In this document: positions 15,221 to 27,487 of the stretch, in pieces
How positions within the stretch are numbered: the stretch's first letter is position 1
How the letters are laid out: every line of letters begins with the position of its first letter
Origin: an archaeon
Lineage (GTDB): Archaea > Asgardarchaeota > Thorarchaeia > Thorarchaeales > Thorarchaeaceae
Direction of reading: 5' to 3'
Length of the DNA stretch: 32,000 nt
Assembly (NCBI GenBank): GCA_024275415.1
Contig: JAJRZD010000051.1
Span: 60,001-92,000, forward strand
The notes under the pieces: model-generated
Told to the model about the DNA's origin: nothing
What the model saw: the letters and a program-made list of their open reading frames with translations, nothing else
The model's database searches: none
Program-made: the position numbers and the translations under genes

Positions 15221-16060
15221 ATGACAAGACTTCCTGTAGTTGCGGGTCGCTTCTATGAAGGGACAGAAGAATCACTTCGCAAACGGATTACGGAATGCTT
15301 TCTTGGTCAGCTGGGCCCAGGAAGGTTGCCCGAGGGAGAACCAAGTTCTGTGCGTAGAATCAAGGCTTTGATAGCACCTCACGCTGGATACGTCTATTCA
15401 GGAATGCCCGCGGCGCATAGTTACTTGGAATTGTTCGAGGATGGCAAGCCTGAACACATAGTCATCATCGGCCCCAATCACACCGGAGTTGGAGCACCAG
15501 TCGCAGTATGCAATGACGACTGGGAAACACCACTGGGCTTGGCTAGGTTCGACGCTGGGCTTGGACACTTGATTGTTGAGAACAACGAGTATGCCACAAA
15601 CGATTGCATCGCTCATAGCTCTGAGCATTCCATAGAGGTGCAGATTCCTTTCCTGCAATTCGTCTTTGGTGAGGGTGTCAGTTTCGTTCCCATCTGCCTT
15701 GGCGACTACCGGTATGAAGTGGTAGAGTCACTTGGGAAGACCATAGCGGATCTGGCGAAAGATATGGACATACTGGTCATTGCAAGCTCTGACTTCACTC
15801 ATTTCGAAAGCGCCCAGAGTGCCAAGATGAAGGACAATCAGGCAATGGAGTACTTGGAGTATCTGGATCCAAAAGGGTTCCTAGAATTCGTGAAGCGTCA
15901 CAAGGTCAGTATCTGTGGCGCGGGACCGATAGCTGTTTCCCTTGTGTTTGCTAGGGAGCTTGGAGCAACGAACTTCAGACTTGTCAAATATACTACTTCT
16001 GGGGATGTCACTGGGGACAATAACAGCGTGGTCGCGTACGTATCCGCAAAGTTCGTTTGA
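15221..16060 (+). CDS. MEMO1 family protein (AmmeMemoRadiSam protein B)
   Basis: RLPVVAGRFY, PHAGYVYSG, GPNH, EHSIEVQIPF, SSDFTH, SICG and VVAY. Confidence 0.93.
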   Translation: MTRLPVVAGRFYEGTEESLRKRITECFLGQLGPGRLPEGEPSSVRRIKALIAPHAGYVYSGMPAAHSYLELFEDGKPEHIVIIGPNHTGVGAPVAVCNDDWETPLGLARFDAGLGHLIVENNEYATNDCIAHSSEHSIEVQIPFLQFVFGEGVSFVPICLGDYRYEVVESLGKTIADLAKDMDILVIASSDFTHFESAQSAKMKDNQAMEYLEYLDPKGFLEFVKRHKVSICGAGPIAVSLVFARELGATNFRLVKYTTSGDVTGDNNSVVAYVSAKFV

Positions 16061-16103: not shown

Positions 16104-17369
16104 TTAGCTCAGCGGTTGTGTTTCTACTGGCATGTGCCTTTGCACTGTCCGAGGCAATCCGATGGCAGCCGTGACTCCACCGGCTACTGAAACGACAACT
16201 GCAACTGCTAGGGATGATGCAGCATTGCCAGTTGTATCGAATAGCACCCCTCCCAACAATGGGCCGACCACATAGGCACTGTTGCTTACTGCGCCCATGA
16301 CACCCATTATGCTCCCGTAAGATTGCACATCTGTCAGATCAGCAGTAAGTGCTTGGATTGTCGGGCCTCTCATGGAGATGGCAATACCAAGCACGGCACC
16401 GCCGAGGTAGAAGCCCACAACGTCTGTGGCAATCATAAATAGATACAACGATAATGCACCAATGAAAGACCCCATGACGATGAGCCACTTCCGGCCTAGT
16501 TTGTCGGACATCTTCCCGAATATGATATTACCAATGATGGTGATGACACCCAGCACGCCGAAGAATATCCCGATCTCCAAAGGGGAAATCCCATAGATAA
16601 TCACAATCTCAAGCGTGAAAGCGACTTCTAGGATTCCAAGAGCGAACATGTTTGCGAACATCGCGACACCTAAGGTCGAGTACGCTTTCGGGTTCCGCCT
16701 GAGAATGTCGATCACGGGAGGACGCGTGGCAGTCGCTCTCGTGCCTTCGGGTGTAGGTCTATCAGGTTCCTTGACAAAGACAACAATTGCAAGAAAGGTG
16801 ACTAAAGAGCCGATTGCAGCGATGATGAAAGGTAAGCGTATTCCGAGGAACTGGGCAAGAATTCCCCCAATTGTAGGACCGATTACGAAACCAAGCATAT
16901 TGCCCATACTGATGTAGCCCATGGCAGTTCCCCTATTCTTTGGTGTTGTCATATCTGAAACATATGCGTTGGCAGAGGGGTAGAACCCAGCAGATATTGC
17001 GCCTTCAATGGTACGGGCAAGGATCATCACTACGATATTCTGCGCGAAGGCATAGACCACATTAGCCAGTGCGAAGCCGACCATCGAGAACATCAGGATT
17101 GGTCTGCGCCCAGTCTTGTCGGAAAGGCGACCCATAGGACCAGCAAGCACGATGCGGGTCAATGCAAAGGAGGCTGCAAGAATCCCAAGATCCAAGGCAC
17201 TAGCACCAAGATTGACAACATAATAGGGGAAGATGGGTGTGACTATCCCAAAGCCAATTTGAAGGATAGTCAGAGAAATTGCCAGAGTAATGACCTGTCG
17301 CATTCCTTTTTCTGAGACTGAGGTATCACGAAACTCCAAGAAATCATCAGTTCCAGAGGTCTGTTCCAT
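16104..17369 (-). CDS. MFS transporter (DHA1/TetA-like)
   Basis: About 12 TM helices, motif A GRLSDKTGRR with its repeat GKMSDKLGRK, and GFVIGPTIGG. Confidence 0.9.
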   Translation of the reverse strand: MEQTSGTDDFLEFRDTSVSEKGMRQVITLAISLTILQIGFGIVTPIFPYYVVNLGASALDLGILAASFALTRIVLAGPMGRLSDKTGRRPILMFSMVGFALANVVYAFAQNIVVMILARTIEGAISAGFYPSANAYVSDMTTPKNRGTAMGYISMGNMLGFVIGPTIGGILAQFLGIRLPFIIAAIGSLVTFLAIVVFVKEPDRPTPEGTRATATRPPVIDILRRNPKAYSTLGVAMFANMFALGILEVAFTLEIVIIYGISPLEIGIFFGVLGVITIIGNIIFGKMSDKLGRKWLIVMGSFIGALSLYLFMIATDVVGFYLGGAVLGIAISMRGPTIQALTADLTDVQSYGSIMGVMGAVSNSAYVVGPLLGGVLFDTTGNAASSLAVAVVVSVAGGVTAAIGLPRTVQRHMPVETQPLS

Positions 17370-17431
17370 CTTACGTTACGCCCTGACCACCGCAATGATG
17401 TGGGCGCTTTTTCAGTCTTACTAGGAGGAAT

Positions 17432-17956
17432 TCACTTGTCTATGATGACCCTGCTGACACCTCGAATCGCAGTCAGAGTTTCAATTACTCTGCCAGGAAG
17501 CGGTTCGTGAGTTATGACCTTCATGCAAGGCTCCTCGTAGATTGCAACATCTTCTGCAAGGACTTGCCTGATTGCGATGCCGTGTCCAGCAATGCTAGAG
17601 GTAACCTCAGACAGTATCCCAGGGGTTTCGGGGGACTCGACATAGATGGTAACGACACCATAACCGAGATAGCGGCTTGCCTTCTCCAATGACGGACCGG
17701 CTGGAAGCAGCGACGAGAAGAAATTGTAGAGTTCAGGAATCTGACATATGTCCTCGGTGGTCGCCCTCACCGTTCTTCTATCGAACCCAAGTGCGTCACC
17801 AATCGACTTGAGAGGGACACGTATACGTCCGCATTTCACAATACCTGGGCCTTCGACTTTGAACCCATGCCTGACGATGGCCTGAGCGACAGCAAGTCTA
17901 CTTGGCGAATCCTTGAAGTGATCCACAATCTTCCGCCACACACTAACCGCATCCAT
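17432..17956 (-). CDS. ACT-domain protein, putative amino-acid-responsive regulator (COG2150-like)
   Basis: N-terminal HTH-like DRRTV segment and C-terminal ACT (PGILSEVTSSIAGHGIAIRQ). Its ATG overlaps the upstream TAA by 1 nt. Confidence 0.8.
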   Translation of the reverse strand: MDAVSVWRKIVDHFKDSPSRLAVAQAIVRHGFKVEGPGIVKCGRIRVPLKSIGDALGFDRRTVRATTEDICQIPELYNFFSSLLPAGPSLEKASRYLGYGVVTIYVESPETPGILSEVTSSIAGHGIAIRQVLAEDVAIYEEPCMKVITHEPLPGRVIETLTAIRGVSRVIIDK

Positions 17957-18492
17957 TAGACTATGAGCTTCTCCATAAGAACCTCATTGATATATCCCTT
18001 TGGCATAAGAAAATGTTTCTCCCTCATGCCAACTATATGATATCCAAGCGATTCATACAATCCTAGAGCAACATTGTTGGATTCAAAAGTGCTGAGGACA
18101 ATCTTCTCATATCGTTGTATTCGTCCAGCTTCCTCAACTGCGAGCATCAACGCCCTTCCGACACCTTTGCTTCTGTAGTGCTTTCTAACGATAATGCCTA
18201 AACGTGCAACGTGTTTTGATGCATGCCACTCCTCAGGTTGGAGGCTGACATGTCCGGCATACTCGCCCTCGACTCTGGCAACGAGCAACACTTCGCGGTT
18301 CGAATAGGTTCGCTGAATCCAGCGTGCCCACTCGCTTTGATTGGAACTCGGCTTTGTTGTGGGTAGCCACTTTCCTTCCTGTACGACCTCACAGAAGCAA
18401 TGGAACATCTCTGATGCGTCCGCAACCTTAGCATGTCGAACCACGACAGACTTCTGATCCTTTGTCAAGAAGACCCATTCATCCACACTCAT
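17956..18492 (-). CDS. GNAT family N-acetyltransferase
   Basis: LGIIVRKHYRSKGVGRALM, NNVALGLYESLG and EVLMEK. Confidence 0.88.
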   Translation of the reverse strand: MSVDEWVFLTKDQKSVVVRHAKVADASEMFHCFCEVVQEGKWLPTTKPSSNQSEWARWIQRTYSNREVLLVARVEGEYAGHVSLQPEEWHASKHVARLGIIVRKHYRSKGVGRALMLAVEEAGRIQRYEKIVLSTFESNNVALGLYESLGYHIVGMREKHFLMPKGYINEVLMEKLIV

Positions 18493-18507
18493 TCCCCCAA
18501 TGAAAGG

Positions 18508-19332
18508 TCAGTTGGAACTCGTAAGAGGGATATCTATTCGAGCCCCGGGCCTCGGGAGCGAGCAGACATAGACACGATCGACCTCAACCATGGCAGTATT
18601 CTCGTCCAGTTCCCTGAATGTACCTTTCATCTGGAAGACGGCAGGTTCAAGGGTGACAAGTGAAACCGCTACCCTTTGACCATCGGAGATGTTGTACCCT
18701 CTTTTCTGCTCTTGAGTCCGTTTCATGACAATGCGATTCGAATGTACAGGAAGCATCCCGAACTCTGGAAACCCTACTGGATAGCCATCTTCGTCAATGA
18801 ATGAGAGTATCTTTACCGCAGCAAGCTCACGAAACCGCTTAATGATTGGAAATGACATGTTGCCCTCACGAGTTTCGACATGGGGTACTTTCTTGGCGGC
18901 CATCTTTGCCTTGACAAAGCTGGACAATACGCTTATCTTAGAGATAAGGTGTTTCGCACTCACGGAAACAGGATTTGCTAGGCCAGCAGCCCGTGCATTA
19001 GTGTACTGACTGTACCTAAACAAGGGCGTCATGGCCATGAACTCAAAGACATCATCGTTCCGATGGTATGACTCGAATTCGGCCTTTATCAACCAGCTCT
19101 CAAGATCCATCGTGAGCACAAGAATCGACATCTCACGGTTCCCGTCAAGAAGGTTAAGTCTAGACTTGTAGGTCATGAAATCGCCATATACAAGCTGGGA
19201 CTTGTTGTAGACAGTCCATGACATCACTAGAGCACTGTTTGGCTCATTGTTCTTGTCCTTCGTGAACATGAACTTCGGGGTTTCAAATACACACATTGCA
19301 TCTACCAAATCGGATGGTAATAGTCTATCCAC
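18508..19332 (-). CDS. Tandem pyridoxamine 5'-phosphate oxidase-like (FMN split-barrel) domain protein
   Basis: Two similar halves: KFMFTKDKNNEPN...KSRLNL and KILSFIDEDGYP...RVAVSL...QMKGTF. The GTG start overlaps the activase stop by 8 nt. Confidence 0.7.
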   Translation of the reverse strand: MDRLLPSDLVDAMCVFETPKFMFTKDKNNEPNSALVMSWTVYNKSQLVYGDFMTYKSRLNLLDGNREMSILVLTMDLESWLIKAEFESYHRNDDVFEFMAMTPLFRYSQYTNARAAGLANPVSVSAKHLISKISVLSSFVKAKMAAKKVPHVETREGNMSFPIIKRFRELAAVKILSFIDEDGYPVGFPEFGMLPVHSNRIVMKRTQEQKRGYNISDGQRVAVSLVTLEPAVFQMKGTFRELDENTAMVEVDRVYVCSLPRPGARIDIPLTSSN

Positions 19333-20302
19333 AAGTATTCACCTCTCTCTGTGGTGTTGATGGTTGTGACCCGCGGTCTAGTTTTGTCATACCGGACCAG
19401 ACAACATTGACGACACCTTCGCTCCGGGCTACACGGGCCAGTTCTTCCATGTGATCCCTTTCAATCAGGTCGTAATCCTTCAATGGATATTCCAGCCCAA
19501 AGAGTCGGTATTTCTCAACACACATCTTGTTGAACGCGAGAAGGTCGTAGCGTTCTACATTAGGCAACTCAGAGCTGATAAAACGTGCGATGGCACGGAT
19601 GTTGTCTTTCGAGTCAGTGTGCATGGGGATGATTGGTGTCCGCACCCACACAGGAATGTCAGTCGAAGCAAGAGTCCTTATGTTAGCAAAGATACGTTCC
19701 AGAGGGATACCAGTGAACTCTGTATGCTTCTCAGGATCCAGATGTTTCACATCAAGAAGCACAAGATCCATATTGTCAATGACCTCTCGCCACACTTTGT
19801 CACTAGCATAAGCCGTTGTGTCCAGTGCAACATGAATGCCCTGAGACCTCAGATTCTGAGCGAGACGCACTACGAAATCAGCCTGTAGTAGGGGTTCACC
19901 ACCAGAAATAGTCACGCCACCATCTGAGGTATCAAAGAACACCTTGTCACGTATCAGTTCTTCTGCAAGTTCATTGACTTCACGTGACCGTCCAATGAGT
20001 TCCAACGCACCTGTTGGACAGACCTCTTCACAGATCCCGCAGACCTTGCATCTCTCGCGGTCAATCATCATGCCTTCGTGTGTCAGGTTCAGTGCCTTTT
20101 CAGGACATGCATCAACACATGCTCGATCACCGATGCATTTGCTCCCATGCCATACAAGGCGTGGTTCGGCGTCTATCGTTTCGATATTGTGGCACCAGAC
20201 ACATTTCAACGGACAACCCTTGAGGAACACTGTTGTTCGGATGCCGGGCCCATCCTCGGTCGAACAACGTTGAATGTTTGTGATAATCCCTGTTTCGCTC
20301 AT
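19325..20302 (-). CDS. Glycyl-radical enzyme activating enzyme (radical SAM, ferredoxin-insert type)
   Basis: DGPGIRTTVFLKGCPLKCVWCHN (CxxxCxxC), inserts CIGDRACVDACP and CKVCGICEEVCP, and GGVTISGGEP. Confidence 0.95.
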   Translation of the reverse strand: MSETGIITNIQRCSTEDGPGIRTTVFLKGCPLKCVWCHNIETIDAEPRLVWHGSKCIGDRACVDACPEKALNLTHEGMMIDRERCKVCGICEEVCPTGALELIGRSREVNELAEELIRDKVFFDTSDGGVTISGGEPLLQADFVVRLAQNLRSQGIHVALDTTAYASDKVWREVIDNMDLVLLDVKHLDPEKHTEFTGIPLERIFANIRTLASTDIPVWVRTPIIPMHTDSKDNIRAIARFISSELPNVERYDLLAFNKMCVEKYRLFGLEYPLKDYDLIERDHMEELARVARSEGVVNVVWSGMTKLDRGSQPSTPQREVNTCG

Positions 20303-22728
20303 TACAGACTGTGCTCCGTACGTCTGATAATCTCCTCTTGGAGCTCTCTTCCGATTTGCGTAAAGAACGCATTGTAACCGGTGACTCGAACCAAGAGATT
20401 GGAATACTTGTCTGGGTTCTTCTGTGCATCTCTGAGGGTTTCTGCATCGATGATATTGATCTGTAGAGCCGTACCGCCCACCTCGTTGTAGGCACGTAAG
20501 AAAGCGGCAAGTTTCTGAAGATGCTCGGGAGTACGAACCATCGAGGGGCTGATAGTGATAGTATGTGATGCGCCATTGGGGATGGTGCGTAATTCGAGCT
20601 TGCCAACAGACCGAGTCGAGGCAGTGGGTCCCTTCGAATCCATGCCTTGGACTGCTCCCACACCGCCGGAGAGAAATTCGCCTCGTCTTCTGCCATCGGG
20701 TGTCGCTGCGGTAATCGGGGCGAGAGGAATAAAGTAGTTCCAGCTTAGATAACCAGCACGGAACTTTCGTCCTGTGTACGGATTCTCGTACTTGCGGACC
20801 TCGGTCGCCCAGAAGGTGGAAAGGTCATGAGCTATCGAGTCTGCATAATCATCATCATTTCCGTACTTCGGTGCCTTCTGCCGGAGCAGCTGGCGCAATT
20901 CGTCATAGCCTTCAAAGTTTTTCCGAATGGCGTCCAACAGTTCCTTCATCGATACCCTGTTGGTTTCGTACACCATCTTCTTGACAGCACTTACCGAGTC
21001 AGTCAACGTGGCGATGCCCATGCCCTCCATGGTGTTGAAGTTCCAGATGGTGCCGCCTTCATTGATGTCCTTGCCATTTGCAGCACAGCCATCCATCAAC
21101 GCGCTCAGGTATGGAGTAGGTTGCCACTTTGCCCTGATGGTGTCAGCCATGTTCCCTGCATTCACAAGCAATCGCACCATCTCTGCGAGTTGTGCCTTGA
21201 CAGCGACAAGGAACTCTTCGTAAGTTGTGAAGGTCATAGGGTCTCCTGTACGTACACCCACTTGCTCGCCAGTTTCCAGATCGCGTCCGTCATTCAATGC
21301 AAGCTCGACAGCCTTGGCAAGATTGATGTTCACATCGACAGTATCTGAGCGGTCACAGCCTTGCATCGTGTTCTCAAGACAGCCGACAATGCCGTAATCC
21401 CACGCTTGCTCACGAGGGACTCCTTGCCAGACGAGACCTTCAATACTGTGCTCATCGAAGTTGAGCAGGAACGGCGAGCCCTGCGCCTTTGAAAGTATCT
21501 CGCAGATTCGTAGGAGCAGGTCATCTGGGGTGTTCCGGTGAATGCGGATGTTCGGCTTAGGCTCCAGCAGGTTCATCTCCTCGATGACTTCGAGGAGCAG
21601 CCATGTGAGCTCATTTGATACGTCCTCACCGTTGGGCCCACAGCCCCCTAATGTCACCAGTTGCCCAAAGCTAGAGTTGATTCCCTGATTGATTCCGAGC
21701 CGTCCTTGAAAATCATACACATAGTTGTGTTTTATCCAGTAACACTGCAAAAGTTCCTTTGCCTCGTCACGGGTAAGCTCGCCCGACTCGATGCTTGCCT
21801 TGTAAAAGGGATACATATACTGGTCGAACCTTCCATGTGATAATCCTGCACCCGGGTAAGATTCGGCAGCCATGACCAGGATGTGCGTTGTCCAGAGCGC
21901 TTGGAGGGCTTCCCACCACGTTTCAGGTGGTTCCCACGGCACTTTCCTGCAGATCCTCGCTATCTCCTGAAGTTCAGCCCTCCTTTTCGAGTCAGGTTCT
22001 TTTGCAGCAAGAAACTTTGCCTTTTCGGCATATCTCACGTTGAAATCACGGGCGGTTTCGCAGCTGAGGATCAATGATTGGACGAACTCCCTGTGGCTTT
22101 CAGAGATATCAGAGTTGAGAATCTCCTCAAACTCCTTGACAAGTCCTTTCATTCCGATACGCATTACCTTTGCATAGTTTGGTATGATGTGCCCTGGAGC
22201 GGAGGATGCAGTCCCGACGCCCACACTGTTAAGACGTTTGGCTTCTTTGAACCATTTTTGCATTTCCTTGTTCCGAATCTTGGTTTCGGACTTCGTGAGA
22301 GACTTTGACAGGGCGGTATTGAAATGAAATCCGACGATGAGTTCGCCATCGATGATCTCGATCGGTATGTACTTGGTCATGACCTCGTAGAAGAAGATAG
22401 CCCGTCGCATGGGCAGACCATGGTCATAATAGTCATCGGGCAGGTCAACATGGATTGCCATGGCTTGCAAGGTCGCATCAATCGAAGCGAAAAACTGGTA
22501 TATCGCAGGCTCGTTTGCCCAGTCGTGGTAGGAGTATACCTCATCCCACTCGTCCCCAGAGGTGAAGGAGATGACCTCATTGGTGAGATCACGTTCGTGG
22601 AATGAATAGAAGTGATCCCTGAGCTTCTTCACTCTTTCAGTCAAGTCTTCAGAAGGGGACCAGATAGAAACCATATCAGCATCGTGGTCAAGTGTCATGT
22701 AGCATTCTTCCCATCGGGCGGTACTCAA
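20302..22728 (-). CDS. Glycyl radical enzyme (PFL2/eliminase-like superfamily), substrate unassigned
   Basis: Cys loop GCLE (21373-21384, C450/E452), Gly loop RVTGY (G784), GRFDQY, PKYGNDD and ATPDGR. There is no PFL CC pair. Start is TTG 22728 or ATG 22698. Confidence 0.93.
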   Translation of the reverse strand: MSTARWEECYMTLDHDADMVSIWSPSEDLTERVKKLRDHFYSFHERDLTNEVISFTSGDEWDEVYSYHDWANEPAIYQFFASIDATLQAMAIHVDLPDDYYDHGLPMRRAIFFYEVMTKYIPIEIIDGELIVGFHFNTALSKSLTKSETKIRNKEMQKWFKEAKRLNSVGVGTASSAPGHIIPNYAKVMRIGMKGLVKEFEEILNSDISESHREFVQSLILSCETARDFNVRYAEKAKFLAAKEPDSKRRAELQEIARICRKVPWEPPETWWEALQALWTTHILVMAAESYPGAGLSHGRFDQYMYPFYKASIESGELTRDEAKELLQCYWIKHNYVYDFQGRLGINQGINSSFGQLVTLGGCGPNGEDVSNELTWLLLEVIEEMNLLEPKPNIRIHRNTPDDLLLRICEILSKAQGSPFLLNFDEHSIEGLVWQGVPREQAWDYGIVGCLENTMQGCDRSDTVDVNINLAKAVELALNDGRDLETGEQVGVRTGDPMTFTTYEEFLVAVKAQLAEMVRLLVNAGNMADTIRAKWQPTPYLSALMDGCAANGKDINEGGTIWNFNTMEGMGIATLTDSVSAVKKMVYETNRVSMKELLDAIRKNFEGYDELRQLLRQKAPKYGNDDDYADSIAHDLSTFWATEVRKYENPYTGRKFRAGYLSWNYFIPLAPITAATPDGRRRGEFLSGGVGAVQGMDSKGPTASTRSVGKLELRTIPNGASHTITISPSMVRTPEHLQKLAAFLRAYNEVGGTALQINIIDAETLRDAQKNPDKYSNLLVRVTGYNAFFTQIGRELQEEIIRRTEHSL

Positions 22729-22859
22729 TGGATTAACGCATGGGCTAATATATCTCCTGTTCGTACACCTTTCAAACTGGCGCTAGCCTTAAAAGTGGTA
22801 TAATTTCTTGTGGCGCATCCGCCCGAAACATATCAATTGGGTACTAGGAAGGCTTCAGA

Positions 22860-24413
22860 ATGAAGAGAGTGAATCTGGTAACAATACTGATAGTAACTTT
22901 GATGATTGTCGGCACGTTTAGCATTGCCCCCAATTCATTGGCAACCCATGAAAAAGTAGCTGAAGCACCGGTATTACCAGTTTCTACAGCAGGGTTTGAT
23001 TCCGATAACATTTCCGTGACATTAATCTCGCCTGCGAACAGGAGTACGCTTGTAGGGACTGTTGACCTGAATGTGACCATTACATCAGTGAACGGCCCCC
23101 TTAACCTGACGCTCTTCGTAGATGATGAAGTCTACTTCTCCGACTACAACAAGACCGAGATCACGCCGGGTTCGATGAATCTCACACTAGATACGACACT
23201 ACTCCCCGAAGGAGATCTGAACTTCACACTCCTCCTTGAAGACAACAGTTCAGGCATCGTTGACAAGGAAACCTACTATCTCGTATTTACAGTCGATAAT
23301 CACGGTGCACCTTCAATCGAGTTGGTATCTCATGTGGCCGGTGATACGTTCACGGGGATGGACAACCTGACCCTCAATATCACAGCAGACTATGCAGAAG
23401 TCTACCTCAACATCAGTGTGGATGGGGATCTGGTTCCAGAGTACAACGCTACCTTAGTTCCAGCAGGTCTTGGTAATTTCACGATAAATGGCACACGATA
23501 TGAGAATGGGCATCACCTCATTGATATCACAGTCTACACCGAAGAGGGATTAGAGGATACATTGTCGATTCAGTTGATCTTCTTGGACTATATCAGATTC
23601 TATCTGAATGACATCACAGAATATGCCCAGATAGCAGGAGATTACGAGTTCGACATCTCTATCGAATCACCATCTGACAATGTGACAATCAACGTATACG
23701 TCGACGGAACCTTTGATTCTTCGTGGGAATTCAAGGTATCGAATGAGAGCGTGATCCTCAAAGTCGATACTACAAAGTACTCGGAAGGTGAGCACAACTT
23801 CACATTCATCGCTGATGACGATGCCGGACATAAATGGATACGAAGGTGGGTCTTCACCATAGATAACCACGGAACTCCTACCATTGAGATTGTTTCACCA
23901 ACGGAGGATGTCGTGACAGGTCTTGCGGCATTCACAGTAAACATTGAGAGTACTTGGGATACTGTGACTGTGAGAGTCTATGTCGATGACGAGTCTGTCG
24001 CAAACTATACAGATGTTGCACCTGGAGAATTCACATTTTACCTAGATACGACCCCATTCACCAAGTGGGAACATACCCTCAGAGTGGTTGTTGAAACTGA
24101 GGAGAACGAAACTGCTGAGGTGGAGGAGGTCTTTGGCTTTGCGAACATCAGAATAGAAGAGATAGTCAGTCTGGCAATCCTTCTGGGAATCGCAATCGTC
24201 ATCCCGCTCATCAGAAAGAAAGGTGGTGAGCCCCTCAGACCAATCCTCATCTTAGATGTGATATACCTACTAGTGGTGGCAGCGGGCTTTCTGATAGCCG
24301 GGGTAACTACAATCCCATTTGCGCTCTGGCACTTCAATCTTGGAAGCATTTGGATCCTAGGCGGAATCCTAGTCGTCCTCAATTGGGTGTACCCACTGAT
24401 AACAGAGGAATGA
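22860..24413 (+). CDS. Cell-surface protein: signal peptide, four Ig-like beta domains, C-terminal ~3-TM anchor
   Basis: The repeated junction VFT(V/I)DNHG(A/T)P(S/T)IE(L/I)VS, the beta-rich composition, ~19 NxS/T sequons and three terminal hydrophobic segments. Confidence 0.8.
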   Translation: MKRVNLVTILIVTLMIVGTFSIAPNSLATHEKVAEAPVLPVSTAGFDSDNISVTLISPANRSTLVGTVDLNVTITSVNGPLNLTLFVDDEVYFSDYNKTEITPGSMNLTLDTTLLPEGDLNFTLLLEDNSSGIVDKETYYLVFTVDNHGAPSIELVSHVAGDTFTGMDNLTLNITADYAEVYLNISVDGDLVPEYNATLVPAGLGNFTINGTRYENGHHLIDITVYTEEGLEDTLSIQLIFLDYIRFYLNDITEYAQIAGDYEFDISIESPSDNVTINVYVDGTFDSSWEFKVSNESVILKVDTTKYSEGEHNFTFIADDDAGHKWIRRWVFTIDNHGTPTIEIVSPTEDVVTGLAAFTVNIESTWDTVTVRVYVDDESVANYTDVAPGEFTFYLDTTPFTKWEHTLRVVVETEENETAEVEEVFGFANIRIEEIVSLAILLGIAIVIPLIRKKGGEPLRPILILDVIYLLVVAAGFLIAGVTTIPFALWHFNLGSIWILGGILVVLNWVYPLITEE

Positions 24414-24414
24414 A

Positions 24415-25278
24415 CTAGAGTATCCTAGTGACCGGGATAAGGCGTGATTCGTCAACAGACCACCGAGCAGTTTTCTTGAACCTCGCGAGTTGGTCTTTGG
24501 GAATCATTCCTTTCACTTTCTTTATTCTCAGCACCTTCACTGCGGACAAGACCTTCGCAGCAATCGCTTTGAGATGGTCATCGTCCCGAGTGGTGATATC
24601 AACCGCAAAGGCTCCAGTGGTTGCATCTAGCTTCACTATCACTCCTGCGCCCACAACACGGTTCTTCTGATATAGCTCATAGACACGTCCCTTGTGGCCC
24701 TTGGTAACAATCATGTCCAAGAGCTCGCACATCTTGCCGGGTATAGCTATGTTCGAGAAATTAAGCGTGGGAGGAACCTTCTGGATGTCCTTCAGCTGTT
24801 TCAGACGAAGTCCCTTTATCAATGGCGTTTTTATCCTTGAAGGGGTAGTGGAAATCTCCAGAATTGACCCTCTCGCAAAGTAATCAATCTTCATCCAGTA
24901 GTTGTAGGCTTCTGGAGGCGTGAGCGATACTACGCGAGGCACCTTCTTTTCTTTGAATACCGTTTCGGCTGTCCGTGTGAGCAGCGTACCGATACCTTGC
25001 TTTTGGTTTCGCACATCCACGTCTAGGTTGCGGATGATGCCAACTTTCCCGATCACAGGATTCTTTTCAATGCGGAACACAATCTCTCCTACGACAGAGC
25101 CCTCTTCTTCAGCAACGAACCAGCCCCAGTTCCTGAAGCATATGCCCTTGTGTTCGTTCTTGACTTCTTCAACGGTCTGGTAGCCTCCTTCCTTGGTTCT
25201 GTAGAACCACCGAGTCGTCTGATAGACAGTAAGCAGATCCTTGCAGTCACGTATCCTACCTTTTCGTATTATGACCAT
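24415..25278 (-). CDS. GNAT family protein (N-terminal GNAT + probable second degenerate GNAT-like domain)
   Basis: LDVDVRNQKQGIGTLL acetyl-CoA motif. The C-terminal half shows a GNAT-like beta/alpha pattern without a clear motif. Confidence 0.75.
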   Translation of the reverse strand: MVIIRKGRIRDCKDLLTVYQTTRWFYRTKEGGYQTVEEVKNEHKGICFRNWGWFVAEEEGSVVGEIVFRIEKNPVIGKVGIIRNLDVDVRNQKQGIGTLLTRTAETVFKEKKVPRVVSLTPPEAYNYWMKIDYFARGSILEISTTPSRIKTPLIKGLRLKQLKDIQKVPPTLNFSNIAIPGKMCELLDMIVTKGHKGRVYELYQKNRVVGAGVIVKLDATTGAFAVDITTRDDDHLKAIAAKVLSAVKVLRIKKVKGMIPKDQLARFKKTARWSVDESRLIPVTRIL

Positions 25279-25355
25279 TGAGCATCAGTTCCGTGTCAGT
25301 GTTTATCTAAAATCAGGTTCGGGTCAGGTATAAACTGATGTAACACACAGTATGT

Positions 25356-26279
25356 CTACTGCAAACGCGAACTCATTTTCTGTGCAAGCTGTCCTAGTTC
25401 ATACGCAGACTTGCCGAAGATGTATAAGATAGGTTCCACTCCGACGCCACCAGGGACATTAATCCCCAACGTCCCCTTGGGACTTGAGGTTCTAGTCTTG
25501 AAGACCTGTTTTGCAATCTCATCGACTTCACTGACTGAAGTATCCAAAGATATTATCCGGACGCCTTCATTCCTTGCCACATCGATGACAATGTCTTTCC
25601 CGCTAAGACACAAGCATGCTCTATAGCGCGACCAGCGTTTCTTGACTTGCAGCAATAAAGAGGCTGTATGCCTAGAAGCTCCGAATTGGGGAGCTACAAA
25701 GGCTCTTGCCTTTCCATCCACCAGTGTAATCCTCCCCGGAACGCCAGCGACATCTTGTATTCCCTTTGCGTCCTTTGGACATGCCACAAGATTCGCCCTA
25801 ACTTCAGGTACAAGAAGGGAAAACCCCTTGGAGTCTTGAATGACATGAAGTGCTCTCTGGATATCCAGAATGACCATCGAACGAGCACTCAGCTCGACAT
25901 CAGAGCCCCCAATGAGCTCCGAACAGATCGAACAATCCTCTTCTTCGAGAAACGGGTAAGAGCGTTTGTGCATCAGGCATATTTCCGACCCGACCCTCAA
26001 AGACATACAGGTGCTACACACTTCTTTCAATATCTTTGATTTAGAATGTGATTCGTTAACAAGCTGGTCTACCAAGCGTTCTGCAAGGCTCTGAGCCTCT
26101 GTGTCAATTCTCCGTTTTCCTTCGTGCTGGCGCATGTATTTGCTTACAGCTGCTTGGGTCAAATCAAGTCGCTCTGCGATCTCGACCTGCGACAGTCCTC
26201 GCTCACTGAGCAGTCGTGCCAATGTTCCTCTGAGCGAAGGAAGGAATTCACGTTGTACAATCTCACATGGGGGACGCAA
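25356..26279 (-). CDS. thiR: ThiR-type thiamine-responsive repressor (HTH + Cys/His cluster + ThiN domain)
   Basis: RPPCE...SQVEIAERLDLTQAAVSKY HTH, CxxC..C..H..CxxC, and ThiN motifs PEVRANL, DVAGVPGRI and FGASRH. GGAGG lies 7 nt before the TTG at 26279. Divergent from a thiamine ABC transporter. Confidence 0.85.
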   Translation of the reverse strand: MRPPCEIVQREFLPSLRGTLARLLSERGLSQVEIAERLDLTQAAVSKYMRQHEGKRRIDTEAQSLAERLVDQLVNESHSKSKILKEVCSTCMSLRVGSEICLMHKRSYPFLEEEDCSICSELIGGSDVELSARSMVILDIQRALHVIQDSKGFSLLVPEVRANLVACPKDAKGIQDVAGVPGRITLVDGKARAFVAPQFGASRHTASLLLQVKKRWSRYRACLCLSGKDIVIDVARNEGVRIISLDTSVSEVDEIAKQVFKTRTSSPKGTLGINVPGGVGVEPILYIFGKSAYELGQLAQKMSSRLQ

Positions 26280-26318
26280 TGCATGGCCTCCAAGGCAATC
26301 TATATATGATGGTTCCTT

Positions 26319-26350
26319 GTTATAACTCTGTTGTATAACAGCGATATAAC
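26319..26350. promoter_or_regulatory. Candidate ThiR operator overlapping divergent thiR/thiB promoters
   Basis: Two overlapping TATAAC-N3-GTTATA-like palindromes: TATAACtctGTTgTA (26321-26335) and TATAACagcGaTATA (26334-26348). A third TATAAC half-site lies at 26345-26350. Confidence 0.6.
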
Positions 26351-26362
26351 TATTCGGTTGTG

Positions 26363-27487
26363 ATGAACATGTCTGCTTATTCAAGCCATAGAAATCCAAA
26401 AGTGACTATAGCTGCGATAGCAATCGCGGTTGTCATCATTGTAGGTGCATACGGGTTAGTGTTCTGGCAGGCCCCTAAGCCAACGCTCACAGTCTACACC
26501 TACGATAGTTTCATGCTTTGGGGAAGTGATCCCGACAATATCGATGAAACAGTCTTCGGGCCATTTGAGGACGAATACGGCATCGAAGTGAGGATCGAAC
26601 GACTCAATACAGATGCCAACGGCATTATCTCCAAATTGGTCGCCGAGCAGTCCAATCCTGTTGCAGATGTGGTCATCGGCATCGATAACATCCTCATTTT
26701 GCAGGCTCAAGCAAAGCAGGTTCTGGAACAATATACACCCTCCAACATCGACTTGGTTGAGCATTCCATCATTGATGCATTAGATCCCGACCACTATGTT
26801 ACACCATTTGACTTCGGTCTTGTGACGCTTATCCATAGAACATCAGAATTGAATGCAACTGTAAATCCGGGAATCGAGAACCTCACACTTACCAACTTGG
26901 TAGATATGGCGTCTATGCTTGTGACTGAGAACCCACATTTCAGTAGTCCAGGACTCTCATTCCTCTTGAGCCAGATAGCGGTCTATGAAAAGCTCATGAA
27001 CGCAGATTGGCGTGATTGGTGGCGTGCGGTCAAGGACGACATCGATGTGCAAGAGGGATGGACCGAGGCATGGACAAAATGGGACAGTGACTCCGCTCGC
27101 AAGATACTGGTAAGCTATGGCACAGACCCAGCCTATGATGCATCTTGGACAGGTGGCGCTCCTGATACAGCTGTCGCACCAATCTATTATGATGGCGTGG
27201 ATTATGCATGGATGCAGGTTGAGGGGATTGGTCTTGTGAAGAATGGACCGAATCCTACCCTCGCCAAGGCGTTCATAGACTACTGCCTCACAGCCGCTGT
27301 CCAAGACAATATTGCTCTCAACCAGTGGATGTTCCCTGCCAATACCAACGTTGAACTCGACCCAGTATTCGACTACGCACTGCAACTAGACGATGTTAGC
27401 CTTTTGAACGAGCTGCTGACAGGAACTGAGATAGCGACAAACCTCGAATCATGGCTGAATGCCTACGACGAGATCATGTTGGGATAG
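26363..27487 (+). CDS. thiB: Thiamine ABC transporter substrate-binding protein
   Basis: N-terminal membrane anchor, LTVYTYDSF, GIDN, PFDFG, SSPGLSFL, GWTEAW, VSYGTDPAY, QVEG and QWMFP. Confidence 0.88.
   Translation: MNMSAYSSHRNPKVTIAAIAIAVVIIVGAYGLVFWQAPKPTLTVYTYDSFMLWGSDPDNIDETVFGPFEDEYGIEVRIERLNTDANGIISKLVAEQSNPVADVVIGIDNILILQAQAKQVLEQYTPSNIDLVEHSIIDALDPDHYVTPFDFGLVTLIHRTSELNATVNPGIENLTLTNLVDMASMLVTENPHFSSPGLSFLLSQIAVYEKLMNADWRDWWRAVKDDIDVQEGWTEAWTKWDSDSARKILVSYGTDPAYDASWTGGAPDTAVAPIYYDGVDYAWMQVEGIGLVKNGPNPTLAKAFIDYCLTAAVQDNIALNQWMFPANTNVELDPVFDYALQLDDVSLLNELLTGTEIATNLESWLNAYDEIMLG

Follow-up and report, generated by a model that had tools for sequence, protein, structure and literature searches.

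We analyze here a candidate glycyl radical enzyme (GRE) system from an archaeon of the family Thorarchaeaceae. The system lies in a 32,000-nucleotide stretch of DNA (assembly GCA_024275415.1, contig JAJRZD010000051.1, positions 60,001 to 92,000 of the forward strand), referred to below as the window, in which ORF calling placed six minus-strand open reading frames (ORFs) at positions 16104-22728. They encode the GRE, its radical S-adenosylmethionine (SAM) activase, a protein that we call P2, a GNAT acetyltransferase, a regulator, and an MFS transporter. From the GRE to the MFS transporter, neighboring ORFs overlap by 1 nt, overlap by 8 nt, are 15 nt apart, overlap by 1 nt, and are 62 nt apart, and the ORF coordinates thereby reproduce exactly the six co-oriented genes with gaps of -1, -8, 15, -1, and 62 nt that had been reported in a first-pass annotation of the same DNA. 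The closest relatives of the window's genes bear the name Candidatus Thorarchaeota. The genes and the associated intergenic region are as follows.

20302-22728, minus strand: GRE of an uncharacterized GCLEN/LSWNY clade, with the RVTGY glycine motif, 808 amino acids (aa) read from a TTG; Pfam PFL-like 506.9 bits, Gly_radical 94.9 bits.
19325-20302, minus strand: GRE activating enzyme, 325 aa; TIGR02494 323.8 bits against a cut-off of 174.
18508-19332, minus strand: P2, a tandem split β-barrel protein of 274 aa; PNPOx_N at E 0.0026, below cut-off.
17956-18492, minus strand: GNAT acetyltransferase, 178 aa; Acetyltransf_1 64.4 bits.
17432-17956, minus strand: TrpY-like regulator (the "ACT" gene of the first-pass annotation), 174 aa; NF053754 TrpY_fam 155.8 bits, cut-off 180.
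16104-17369, minus strand: MFS transporter of the drug/H+ antiporter (Tet-like efflux) type, 421 aa; MFS_1 223.6 bits, TIGR00880 154 bits.
22729-22859, no strand assigned: divergent intergenic region between the GRE gene and an Ig-domain gene; TATA-like ATATATTA at ~22747-22754.

The true start of the GRE is probably the ATG at 22698, which would give a protein of 798 aa, because its orthologues are 798 to 799 aa long and the TATA-like ATATATTA lies ~50 nt upstream of that codon. Residue numbers in this text are counted from the TTG ORF (808 aa). The divergent intergenic region is the likely promoter of the GRE-activase-P2 unit. Searches for tRNA and Rfam features found none in the window, and a query for public sequencing runs of the locus returned no entries, RNA included.

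As far as its sequence can be read, the GRE holds the full apparatus for glycyl/thiyl radical catalysis. The glycyl radical motif RVxG[FWY] is present as VRVTGYN, in which Gly784 is invariant in 32 orthologues that share 44-80% identity. The predicted catalytic Cys450, in the sequence VGCLENTMQG, aligns with Cys433 of glycerol dehydratase (GDH) and with the cysteines of HypD and CutC and is equally invariant. A dehydratase-type pair is formed by Glu452, in a loop with a single cysteine (Gly449-Cys450-Leu451-Glu452), and His180 (in PGH; His164 of GDH in the alignment). The residues invariant in the 32 orthologues comprise His180, Tyr291, Ser297, Cys450-Leu-Glu-Asn-Thr454, Thr463, Asn467, Leu661-Ser662-Trp663-Asn664-Tyr665, and Gly784. 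The set is polar and aromatic, and the only charged residues in these segments are Glu452 and an Arg300/Asp302 pair that other aligned GREs also retain. Identity between the Thorarchaeota protein and its Chloroflexota or Thermodesulfobacteriota counterparts is 53-60%, and a divergent N-terminal region (approximately residues 45-100) is one to which other GREs fail to align.

When the GRE was searched against solved structures, its best relatives were glycerol dehydratase (1r8w, 432 bits), CutC (408 bits), HypD (401 bits), Archaeoglobus fulgidus PFL2 (398 bits), and propanediol dehydratase (397 bits), with the X-succinate synthases TutD and MasD at 221 and 247 bits and pyruvate formate-lyase (PFL) itself at 102 bits. 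The NCBIfam models for HypD (497 bits against a cut-off of 1100), HpsG (479/1000), and CutC (436/1050) and the PFL2-3 subfamily model TIGR01774 (547 bits against 678) were all missed, and the equivalogs for glycerol and propanediol dehydratases, CutC, HypD, IslA, and HpsG/HpfG were reached at only 27-48% of their cut-offs. The implication of the first-pass annotation that the GRE lies outside the characterized isofunctional groups was thus supported. We also considered and rejected an identity as an arylacetate decarboxylase: the IAD and 4-hydroxyphenylacetate decarboxylase (HPAD) models scored 319 and 278 bits, compared with 436-547 bits for the eliminase models, and HPAD structures gave 203-264 bits, compared with 432 for GDH.

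The closest of these relatives, the B12-independent GDH with its activase (DhaB1/DhaB2 of Clostridium butyricum, 1R8W/1R9D), and propanediol dehydratase (5I2A) share with this GRE the ten-stranded barrel family, the RVxGY motif, the G-C-x-E thiyl/base loop, the equivalent of GDH His164, and an adjacent gene for an activase with a two-cluster insert. The substrate ligands of GDH are not shared: H281, S282, and D447 are replaced by Ala, Gly, and Val, the loop GCVEP becomes GCLENT, and the strand GLYPSSI becomes GYLSWNY. GDH and propanediol dehydratase also lack a split-barrel partner, whereas this GRE has P2 and the divergent N-terminal region. Operons for these two dehydratases carry alcohol or aldehyde dehydrogenases or microcompartment genes. 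HypD (6VXC/6VXE; NF043068) is another member of this eliminase group and has the same pairing of Cys-x-Glu with His; its Asp278, which we take to be the amine ligand, aligns to Ala294. Judged from these alignments, the pocket differs from every characterized GRE pocket.

The cognate radical-SAM activase gene adjoins the GRE gene. The protein has the radical SAM motif CX3CX2C at C30/C34/C37 and a ferredoxin-like two-cluster insert (Fer4 at residues 54-101). The genome, which is 92.9% complete, has three PFL-like GRE genes and a single activase above cut-off, the one at 19325-20302 of the window, which probably serves all three. The second GRE is a true HypD orthologue, at 1186 bits on NF043068 (cut-off 1100; contig C23:3424-5364). 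Its gene adjoins that for ribosomal protein L3, with no activase beside it, and its frame is broken by one TAA near the 5′ end (ORFs 1487-2119 and 1651-3858 of locus L007:1487-3858), which could reflect either a broken gene or an assembly error. The third GRE (contig C21:22743-24659; locus L008:1498-3843) scores 738.6 bits on the PFL2-3 subfamily model (cut-off 678), is assigned to no equivalog, and may be another uncharacterized GRE; its gene is flanked by aminotransferase and KDG-kinase-like sugar kinase genes and has no activase of its own.

P2 was modeled with high confidence (AlphaFold, from an alignment of 59 relatives; predicted local distance difference test score 94.3) as two split β-barrels joined by a helix, with barrel 1 at approximately residues 5-130, the helix at 132-146, and barrel 2 at approximately residues 160-258. 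Each half superposed on flavin mononucleotide (FMN)-binding proteins and on HupZ with template-modeling scores, by target, of 0.67-0.82 (Foldseek; probability 1.00 to FMN-binding). The model and the match of each half to small FMN-binding split-barrel proteins bear out the earlier description of a tandem split barrel. E values for the family profile were 2.9e-10 with HupZ and 8.3e-9 with the FMN-binding protein 3IN6. PF01243 was found in 45 of 59 family members; this P2 fell below the cut-off (18.6 versus 28.1), nothing exceeded a cut-off for it in Pfam or NCBIfam, and its neighbors in the ESM Atlas were all annotated "hypothetical protein."

Four motifs are conserved in the P2 family, K-T/S-K/R-x-N-L, FRYNAY, DGYP..P, and PPxPG, of which the last three are family specific. 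The first, presumably the FMN phosphate-binding helix of the split-barrel superfamily, is found only in barrel 1 and not in barrel 2, and because only barrel 1 keeps K-T-K-x-N-L, P2 probably has one cofactor site. The proteins that it most resembles, Desulfovibrio vulgaris FMN-binding protein (1AXJ/1WLK), Swol_0183 (3IN6), LDB0262 (2HTD), and HupZ (5ESC), are homodimers of single barrels of ~120-150 aa with 13-19% identity to P2, whereas P2 joins two barrels covalently into a pseudo-dimer, the second barrel being divergent, and has its own FRYNAY and PPxPG motifs and a tie to a GRE gene. A single-barrel P2 of ~161 aa occurs in one Asgard family (f16; locus L027, G117:C1, 7424-7909) and aligns with both halves of the tandem protein, suggesting that tandem P2 may have arisen by duplication of a homodimeric barrel. 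P2 evolves much faster than the GRE, with identities of 22-33% against 44-59% across the same distances.

Other GREs also need extra family-specific partner proteins, among them BssA/TutD (4PKC), MasD (9O8U), and HPAD with HpdC. Those partners are small Fe-S proteins, whereas P2, at 274 aa, is a tandem split barrel poor in cysteine, and the context is not of the fumarate-addition type. We found no description of a GRE paired with a split-barrel, PNPOx, or FMN-binding partner in the literature searched, in line with the first-pass annotation, which recognized no such partner from characterized GRE loci.

The association of P2 with the GRE extends well beyond the window. P2 relatives were present in 175 of 400 Asgard genomes, on contigs in common with GRE orthologues and usually 0.1-1.2 kb from the GRE 3′ end. 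All-against-all clustering of the ORFs in 25 loci (24 from different Asgard families and from metagenomic and bacterial contigs, plus the window) yielded only three conserved families: the GRE in 25/25, P2 in 23/25, and the activase in 16/25. A scan of one-genome-per-species contigs for two GRE motifs, G[YM]LSWNY[WFY] and Y[AG]xVGCLENT, gave at least 586 confirmed loci, in Thorarchaeota, Jordarchaeales, Chloroflexota, Thermodesulfobacteriota and other "Deltaproteobacteria," Geothermincolales, Bacillota, Hydrogenedentota, Nitrospirales, Phycisphaerae, and Spirochaetes. Among the best 80 of these loci, 59 had at least 3 kb of sequence downstream of the GRE, and P2 was present in 54 of the 59. 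The GRE, P2, and the activase were again the only conserved families in the 80 loci, apart from spurious overlapping frames; the next real family, an acyl-CoA-dehydrogenase-like gene, occurred in 9 loci. Distant P2 relatives (19-33% identity) gave a similar picture: the gene next door was a GRE or its activase in all five places with readable neighbors. Bacterial contigs, with sigma-70 or GntR/TetR genes, accounted for at least two of the five. A sixth place starts almost at a contig end.

Most Lokiarchaeia- and Thorarchaeia-type genomes sampled carry this GRE clade. A FastTree tree of 105 family members, made by a quick method and rooted at the midpoint, set the clade apart, with full support, from the other two GREs of the same genome. 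The Asgard members were polyphyletic, scattered among bacterial ones, which points to probable repeated transfer of the GRE module between domains. Within the tree, Jordarchaeales grouped with a Dehalococcoidia metagenome-assembled genome, and one Thorarchaeota genus grouped with other Asgard families, off the main Thorarchaeota clade.

Several Chloroflexota loci (L053, L064, L081, L085, L098, L102, L108, and L109) have genes inserted between the GRE and the activase-P2 pair. The inserts encode an acyl-CoA dehydrogenase, a creatininase-family protein, a DAO-like flavoprotein, and peptidases of families M28, C69, and M24, as well as adenosine deaminase, a Ser/Thr kinase, and α-amylase. Their bias toward peptidases and amidohydrolases could, but need not, reflect a nitrogenous substrate; it is too scattered to count as evidence.

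Gene losses within Thorarchaeota showed which of its two neighbors P2 accompanies. At the syntenic site in genomes G370 and G372, which runs from the Ig-domain gene through activase-GNAT-regulator-MFS to the Memo gene, the GRE and P2 are both gone and the activase is kept. Retention of the activase after loss of the adjacent GRE and P2 is as expected if one activase serves three GREs. Genome G313 has no GRE and no activase above cut-off, and the site keeps GNAT-regulator-MFS only. In G315, a deletion scar has fused GRE codons 22-106 to P2 codons 224-270, with nothing between them, in one open frame of ~186 aa (L116, G315:C30, 8763-9158); the genomic context is different, with none of the window's other genes within 9 kb. 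A hand count over 85 other genomes of the source's family, which is descriptive only since related genomes are not independent, found both GRE and P2 in 47, neither in 33, the GRE alone in 3, and P2 alone in 2. The five discordant genomes comprise short, partial, or contig-edge matches, plus the scar. In several lineages, moreover, the GRE and P2 are directly adjacent in loci without an activase. P2 therefore goes with this GRE clade rather than with the activase, in archaea and bacteria alike.

Taken together, these results lead us to propose, tentatively and at somewhat less than an even chance, that the functional unit consists of three genes, for an uncharacterized GRE, its radical-SAM activase, and a dedicated P2, and that it carries out a radical elimination with P2 as a flavin-type partner. 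The activase would install the glycyl radical on the GRE, and a thiyl radical on Cys450 would then abstract a hydrogen from a small, polar, probably uncharged, hydroxylated substrate, in a pocket whose invariant residues comprise Asn, Thr, Ser, Tyr, and Trp. Glu452 and His180 would drive a dehydratase-type 1,2-elimination. P2, a predicted pseudo-dimer of FMN-binding-type barrels acting as a single-site flavin protein, would take part in the GRE chemistry itself, most likely by reducing or otherwise processing a reactive carbonyl or imine product or by supplying the redox equivalents that complete turnover. The HypD pathway, in which the product is handed to the reductase ProC, provides an analogy for a product-reducing P2. 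That the substrate is of the amino acid or amine type, as the first-pass annotation had it, is a guess to which we find faint support.

Several points weigh against this proposal. It is built from sequence, predicted structure, and gene context. That P2 binds a flavin is deduced from the fold and one motif only, and HupZ, the closest relative of P2 in sequence, is heme binding according to its PDB entries. The arylacetate decarboxylases likewise carry a C-x-E loop, which leaves elimination chemistry unproven. Neither clustering, of 25 loci or of 80, found an aldehyde or alcohol dehydrogenase, a transporter, or any other pathway gene conserved beside the trio, so that the context gives no handle on the substrate, and 5 of the 59 fully flanked loci had neither P2 nor the activase nearby. 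Finally, the overlaps in the window run on into the GNAT and regulator genes, and co-transcription of all six genes is conceivable.

A stronger version of the three-gene proposal, which we consider unlikely, is that the GRE reaction is not redox neutral and that P2, as its flavin-type partner, delivers or accepts electrons, so that radical elimination is coupled to net reduction, for instance in a reductive dehydroxylation used as an electron sink. The coupling would resemble that of anaerobic ribonucleotide reductase. If this were so, it would be a new catalytic arrangement for glycyl radical enzymes other than ribonucleotide reductases, and it would be active in many anaerobes of sediments as well as in most Lokiarchaeia and Thorarchaeia.

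The leading alternative keeps the same three genes and gives P2 a different role, that of a noncatalytic subunit or chaperone of the GRE, which would stabilize the enzyme, gate its radical domain, or quench or protect the radical, with a cofactor being optional. Its role would be comparable to that of the small subunits of benzylsuccinate synthase or 4-hydroxyphenylacetate decarboxylase. The co-occurrence and co-loss of P2 with the GRE rather than with the activase are consistent with such a subunit, as are the lack of further conserved pathway genes beside the trio and the rapid divergence of P2, fast evolution being common for accessory subunits; the divergent N-terminal region of the GRE could serve as a docking surface. 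P2 nonetheless has no cysteine clusters, unlike the known Fe-S small subunits, its kinship is with cofactor-binding split barrels, and the phosphate-binding-type motif is kept in barrel 1. A search among longer proteins found no GRE-P2 or activase-P2 fusions, which is weak evidence, the lack of a GRE-P2 fusion counting slightly against a subunit. A prediction of the complex between GRE residues 70-808 (N terminus cut) and P2 residues 5-264 scored 0.07 against a mark of 0.32 and is evidence neither way. On balance, we regard a purely structural role for P2 as a serious possibility, if an improbable one.

In a second alternative, P2 would donate electrons to the activase, standing in for flavodoxin in the reduction of the radical-SAM [4Fe-4S] cluster, and the trio would comprise an enzyme, its activase, and a reductant. 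P2 lies directly after the activase in most loci, with an 8-nt overlap here, and it resembles small FMN electron transfer proteins such as the Desulfovibrio FMN-binding protein. The pattern of co-loss described above weakens the idea, however: Thorarchaeota that kept the activase for their other GREs lost P2 together with this GRE, the GRE and P2 are adjacent without an activase in several lineages, and the genome has one activase for three GREs and yet only one P2, beside this GRE. We consider such a role quite unlikely.

The six-gene pathway proposed in the first-pass annotation fares worse. On that view, the GRE cleaves an amino acid or amine substrate, P2 processes the product, the GNAT protein acetylates it, the ACT protein acts as its sensor, and the MFS protein carries substrate or product. 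The co-orientation of the six genes, with overlaps or short gaps through the regulator, speaks for it, and so do the individual proteins. The GNAT protein is nearest to the phosphinothricin/arsinothricin N-acetyltransferases, which act on amino acid analogues, although it falls far below the cut-off (ArsN1a 71 bits against 170). The regulator has an amino-acid-type ACT sensor, and some Chloroflexota loci have peptidase, creatininase, or deaminase genes separating the GRE from the activase. Against it, homologues of the GNAT, regulator, and MFS genes were found beside the GRE in none of the non-Thorarchaeota loci examined, so that of the downstream genes expected to co-occur with the GRE in other genomes, the split-barrel gene did so and these three did not. 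Genomes G313, G370, and G372 keep the three genes at the syntenic site without the GRE and P2, MFS orthologues with 60-66% identity occur in Thorarchaeota genomes that lack the GRE and P2, with the regulator remaining beside the MFS gene in such genomes, and the G315 scar has none of the three within 9 kb. The tight junctions are themselves not kept: in two other Thorarchaeota loci, the gaps measure 61/23/61 and 73/115/66 nt (P2 to GNAT, GNAT to regulator, and regulator to MFS), so that gaps of 23-115 nt stand there in place of the overlaps. Adjacency within Thorarchaeota carries little information in any case, since the region is syntenic as a whole, including the ABC transporter, ThiN, second GNAT, Ig-domain protein, histidyl-tRNA synthetase, and Memo genes and beyond. 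Because the GNAT-regulator-MFS block persists where the trio is absent, it is an independent, Thorarchaeota-specific block that happens to abut the trio, and a pathway that includes acetylation and MFS transport is very unlikely.

The regulator proved to be more than the first-pass label "ACT" implied. Its C-terminal part does have the ACT fold, a β-α-β-β-α-β arrangement at residues 100-173 of the model that matches the ACT domains of PGDH, IlvN, and aspartate kinase, but the N-terminal part is of a helical/winged-helix type, and the whole is a TrpY-like winged helix-turn-helix plus ACT regulator, with residues 7-170 matching positions 1-163 of the 163-position NF053754 profile. ACT domains sense small ligands, typically amino acids. 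The protein resembles TrpY, the archaeal tryptophan-sensing regulator, in this end-to-end match, in its DNA-binding N-terminal half, and in its C-terminal ACT fold. It differs in scoring below the TrpY cut-off and in having its gene between GNAT and MFS genes rather than at a trp operon. Most simply, it would be a ligand-sensing regulator of the GNAT/MFS pair, and a reasonable guess is that the block forms a detoxification-and-efflux unit for an amino acid analogue.

On the far side of this block, a gene for a Memo-like AmmeMemoRadiSam system protein B (15221-16060) comes immediately after the gene for histidyl-tRNA synthetase and is convergent with the MFS gene. On the other side of the locus, a gene for a 517-aa Ig-domain (Big_7) protein is divergent from the GRE gene, with genes for a second GNAT protein (287 aa), an HTH-ThiN protein, and an ABC transporter beyond it (the Ig-domain gene and those following at 22860-24413 and 24415-26399 of the window). 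The order Ig-domain, second GNAT, HTH-ThiN, and ABC transporter is kept across Thorarchaeota whether the GRE trio is present or absent.

The last alternative, that the GRE is a pyruvate or 2-oxoacid formate-lyase or an alkyl- or benzylsuccinate synthase that activates hydrocarbons, is suggested by the names of its orthologues in the source records ("pyruvate formate lyase family protein" and "formate C-acetyltransferase") and by published readings of Asgard GREs, but it is scarcely credible here: PFL chemistry requires two adjacent cysteines and the loop has Gly449-Cys450, the PFL model TIGR01255 scored 116 bits against a cut-off of 994, the X-succinate synthases scored 221-247 bits against 397-432 for the eliminases, the Glu/His pair is of the eliminase type, no genes for small β/γ Fe-S subunits are present at the locus, and no small Cys-rich ORF is conserved beside the GRE in the sampled loci. 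As to the published readings, GRE homologues of Hermod- and Thorarchaeota were labeled Ass/Bss on the basis of 29-33% identity, a single Cys preceded by Gly, and similarity to A. fulgidus PflD (PMC8163825). These features fit eliminases equally well, and by its sequence scores this enzyme is much closer to eliminases. In a cultured Asgard archaeon, 2-oxoacid-formate lyases have been invoked (PMC7015854). Two closed Asgard genomes (4.36 and 6.04 Mb) carry the GRE-activase-P2 trio, and the GCLE loop of their GREs, invariant in the clade's alignment, is incompatible with PFL chemistry.

We return, then, to the three-gene unit and to what it may mean. The GRE clade is large, widespread, very conserved, and uncharacterized, and it comes with a kind of accessory protein that is undescribed for any GRE in the literature searched. 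New GRE functions (those acting on choline, hydroxyproline, isethionate, sulfopropanediol, and others) have each opened a part of anaerobic metabolism. The trio is compact and portable, and since mesophilic bacterial versions exist, it should be amenable to heterologous expression. For the Asgard archaea, metabolic reconstructions have read GREs either as 2-oxoacid formate-lyases (PMC7015854) or as alkane- or aromatic-activating enzymes (PMC8163825), and such reconstructions bear on models of syntrophy and eukaryogenesis. The active-site loop of this enzyme contradicts both readings.

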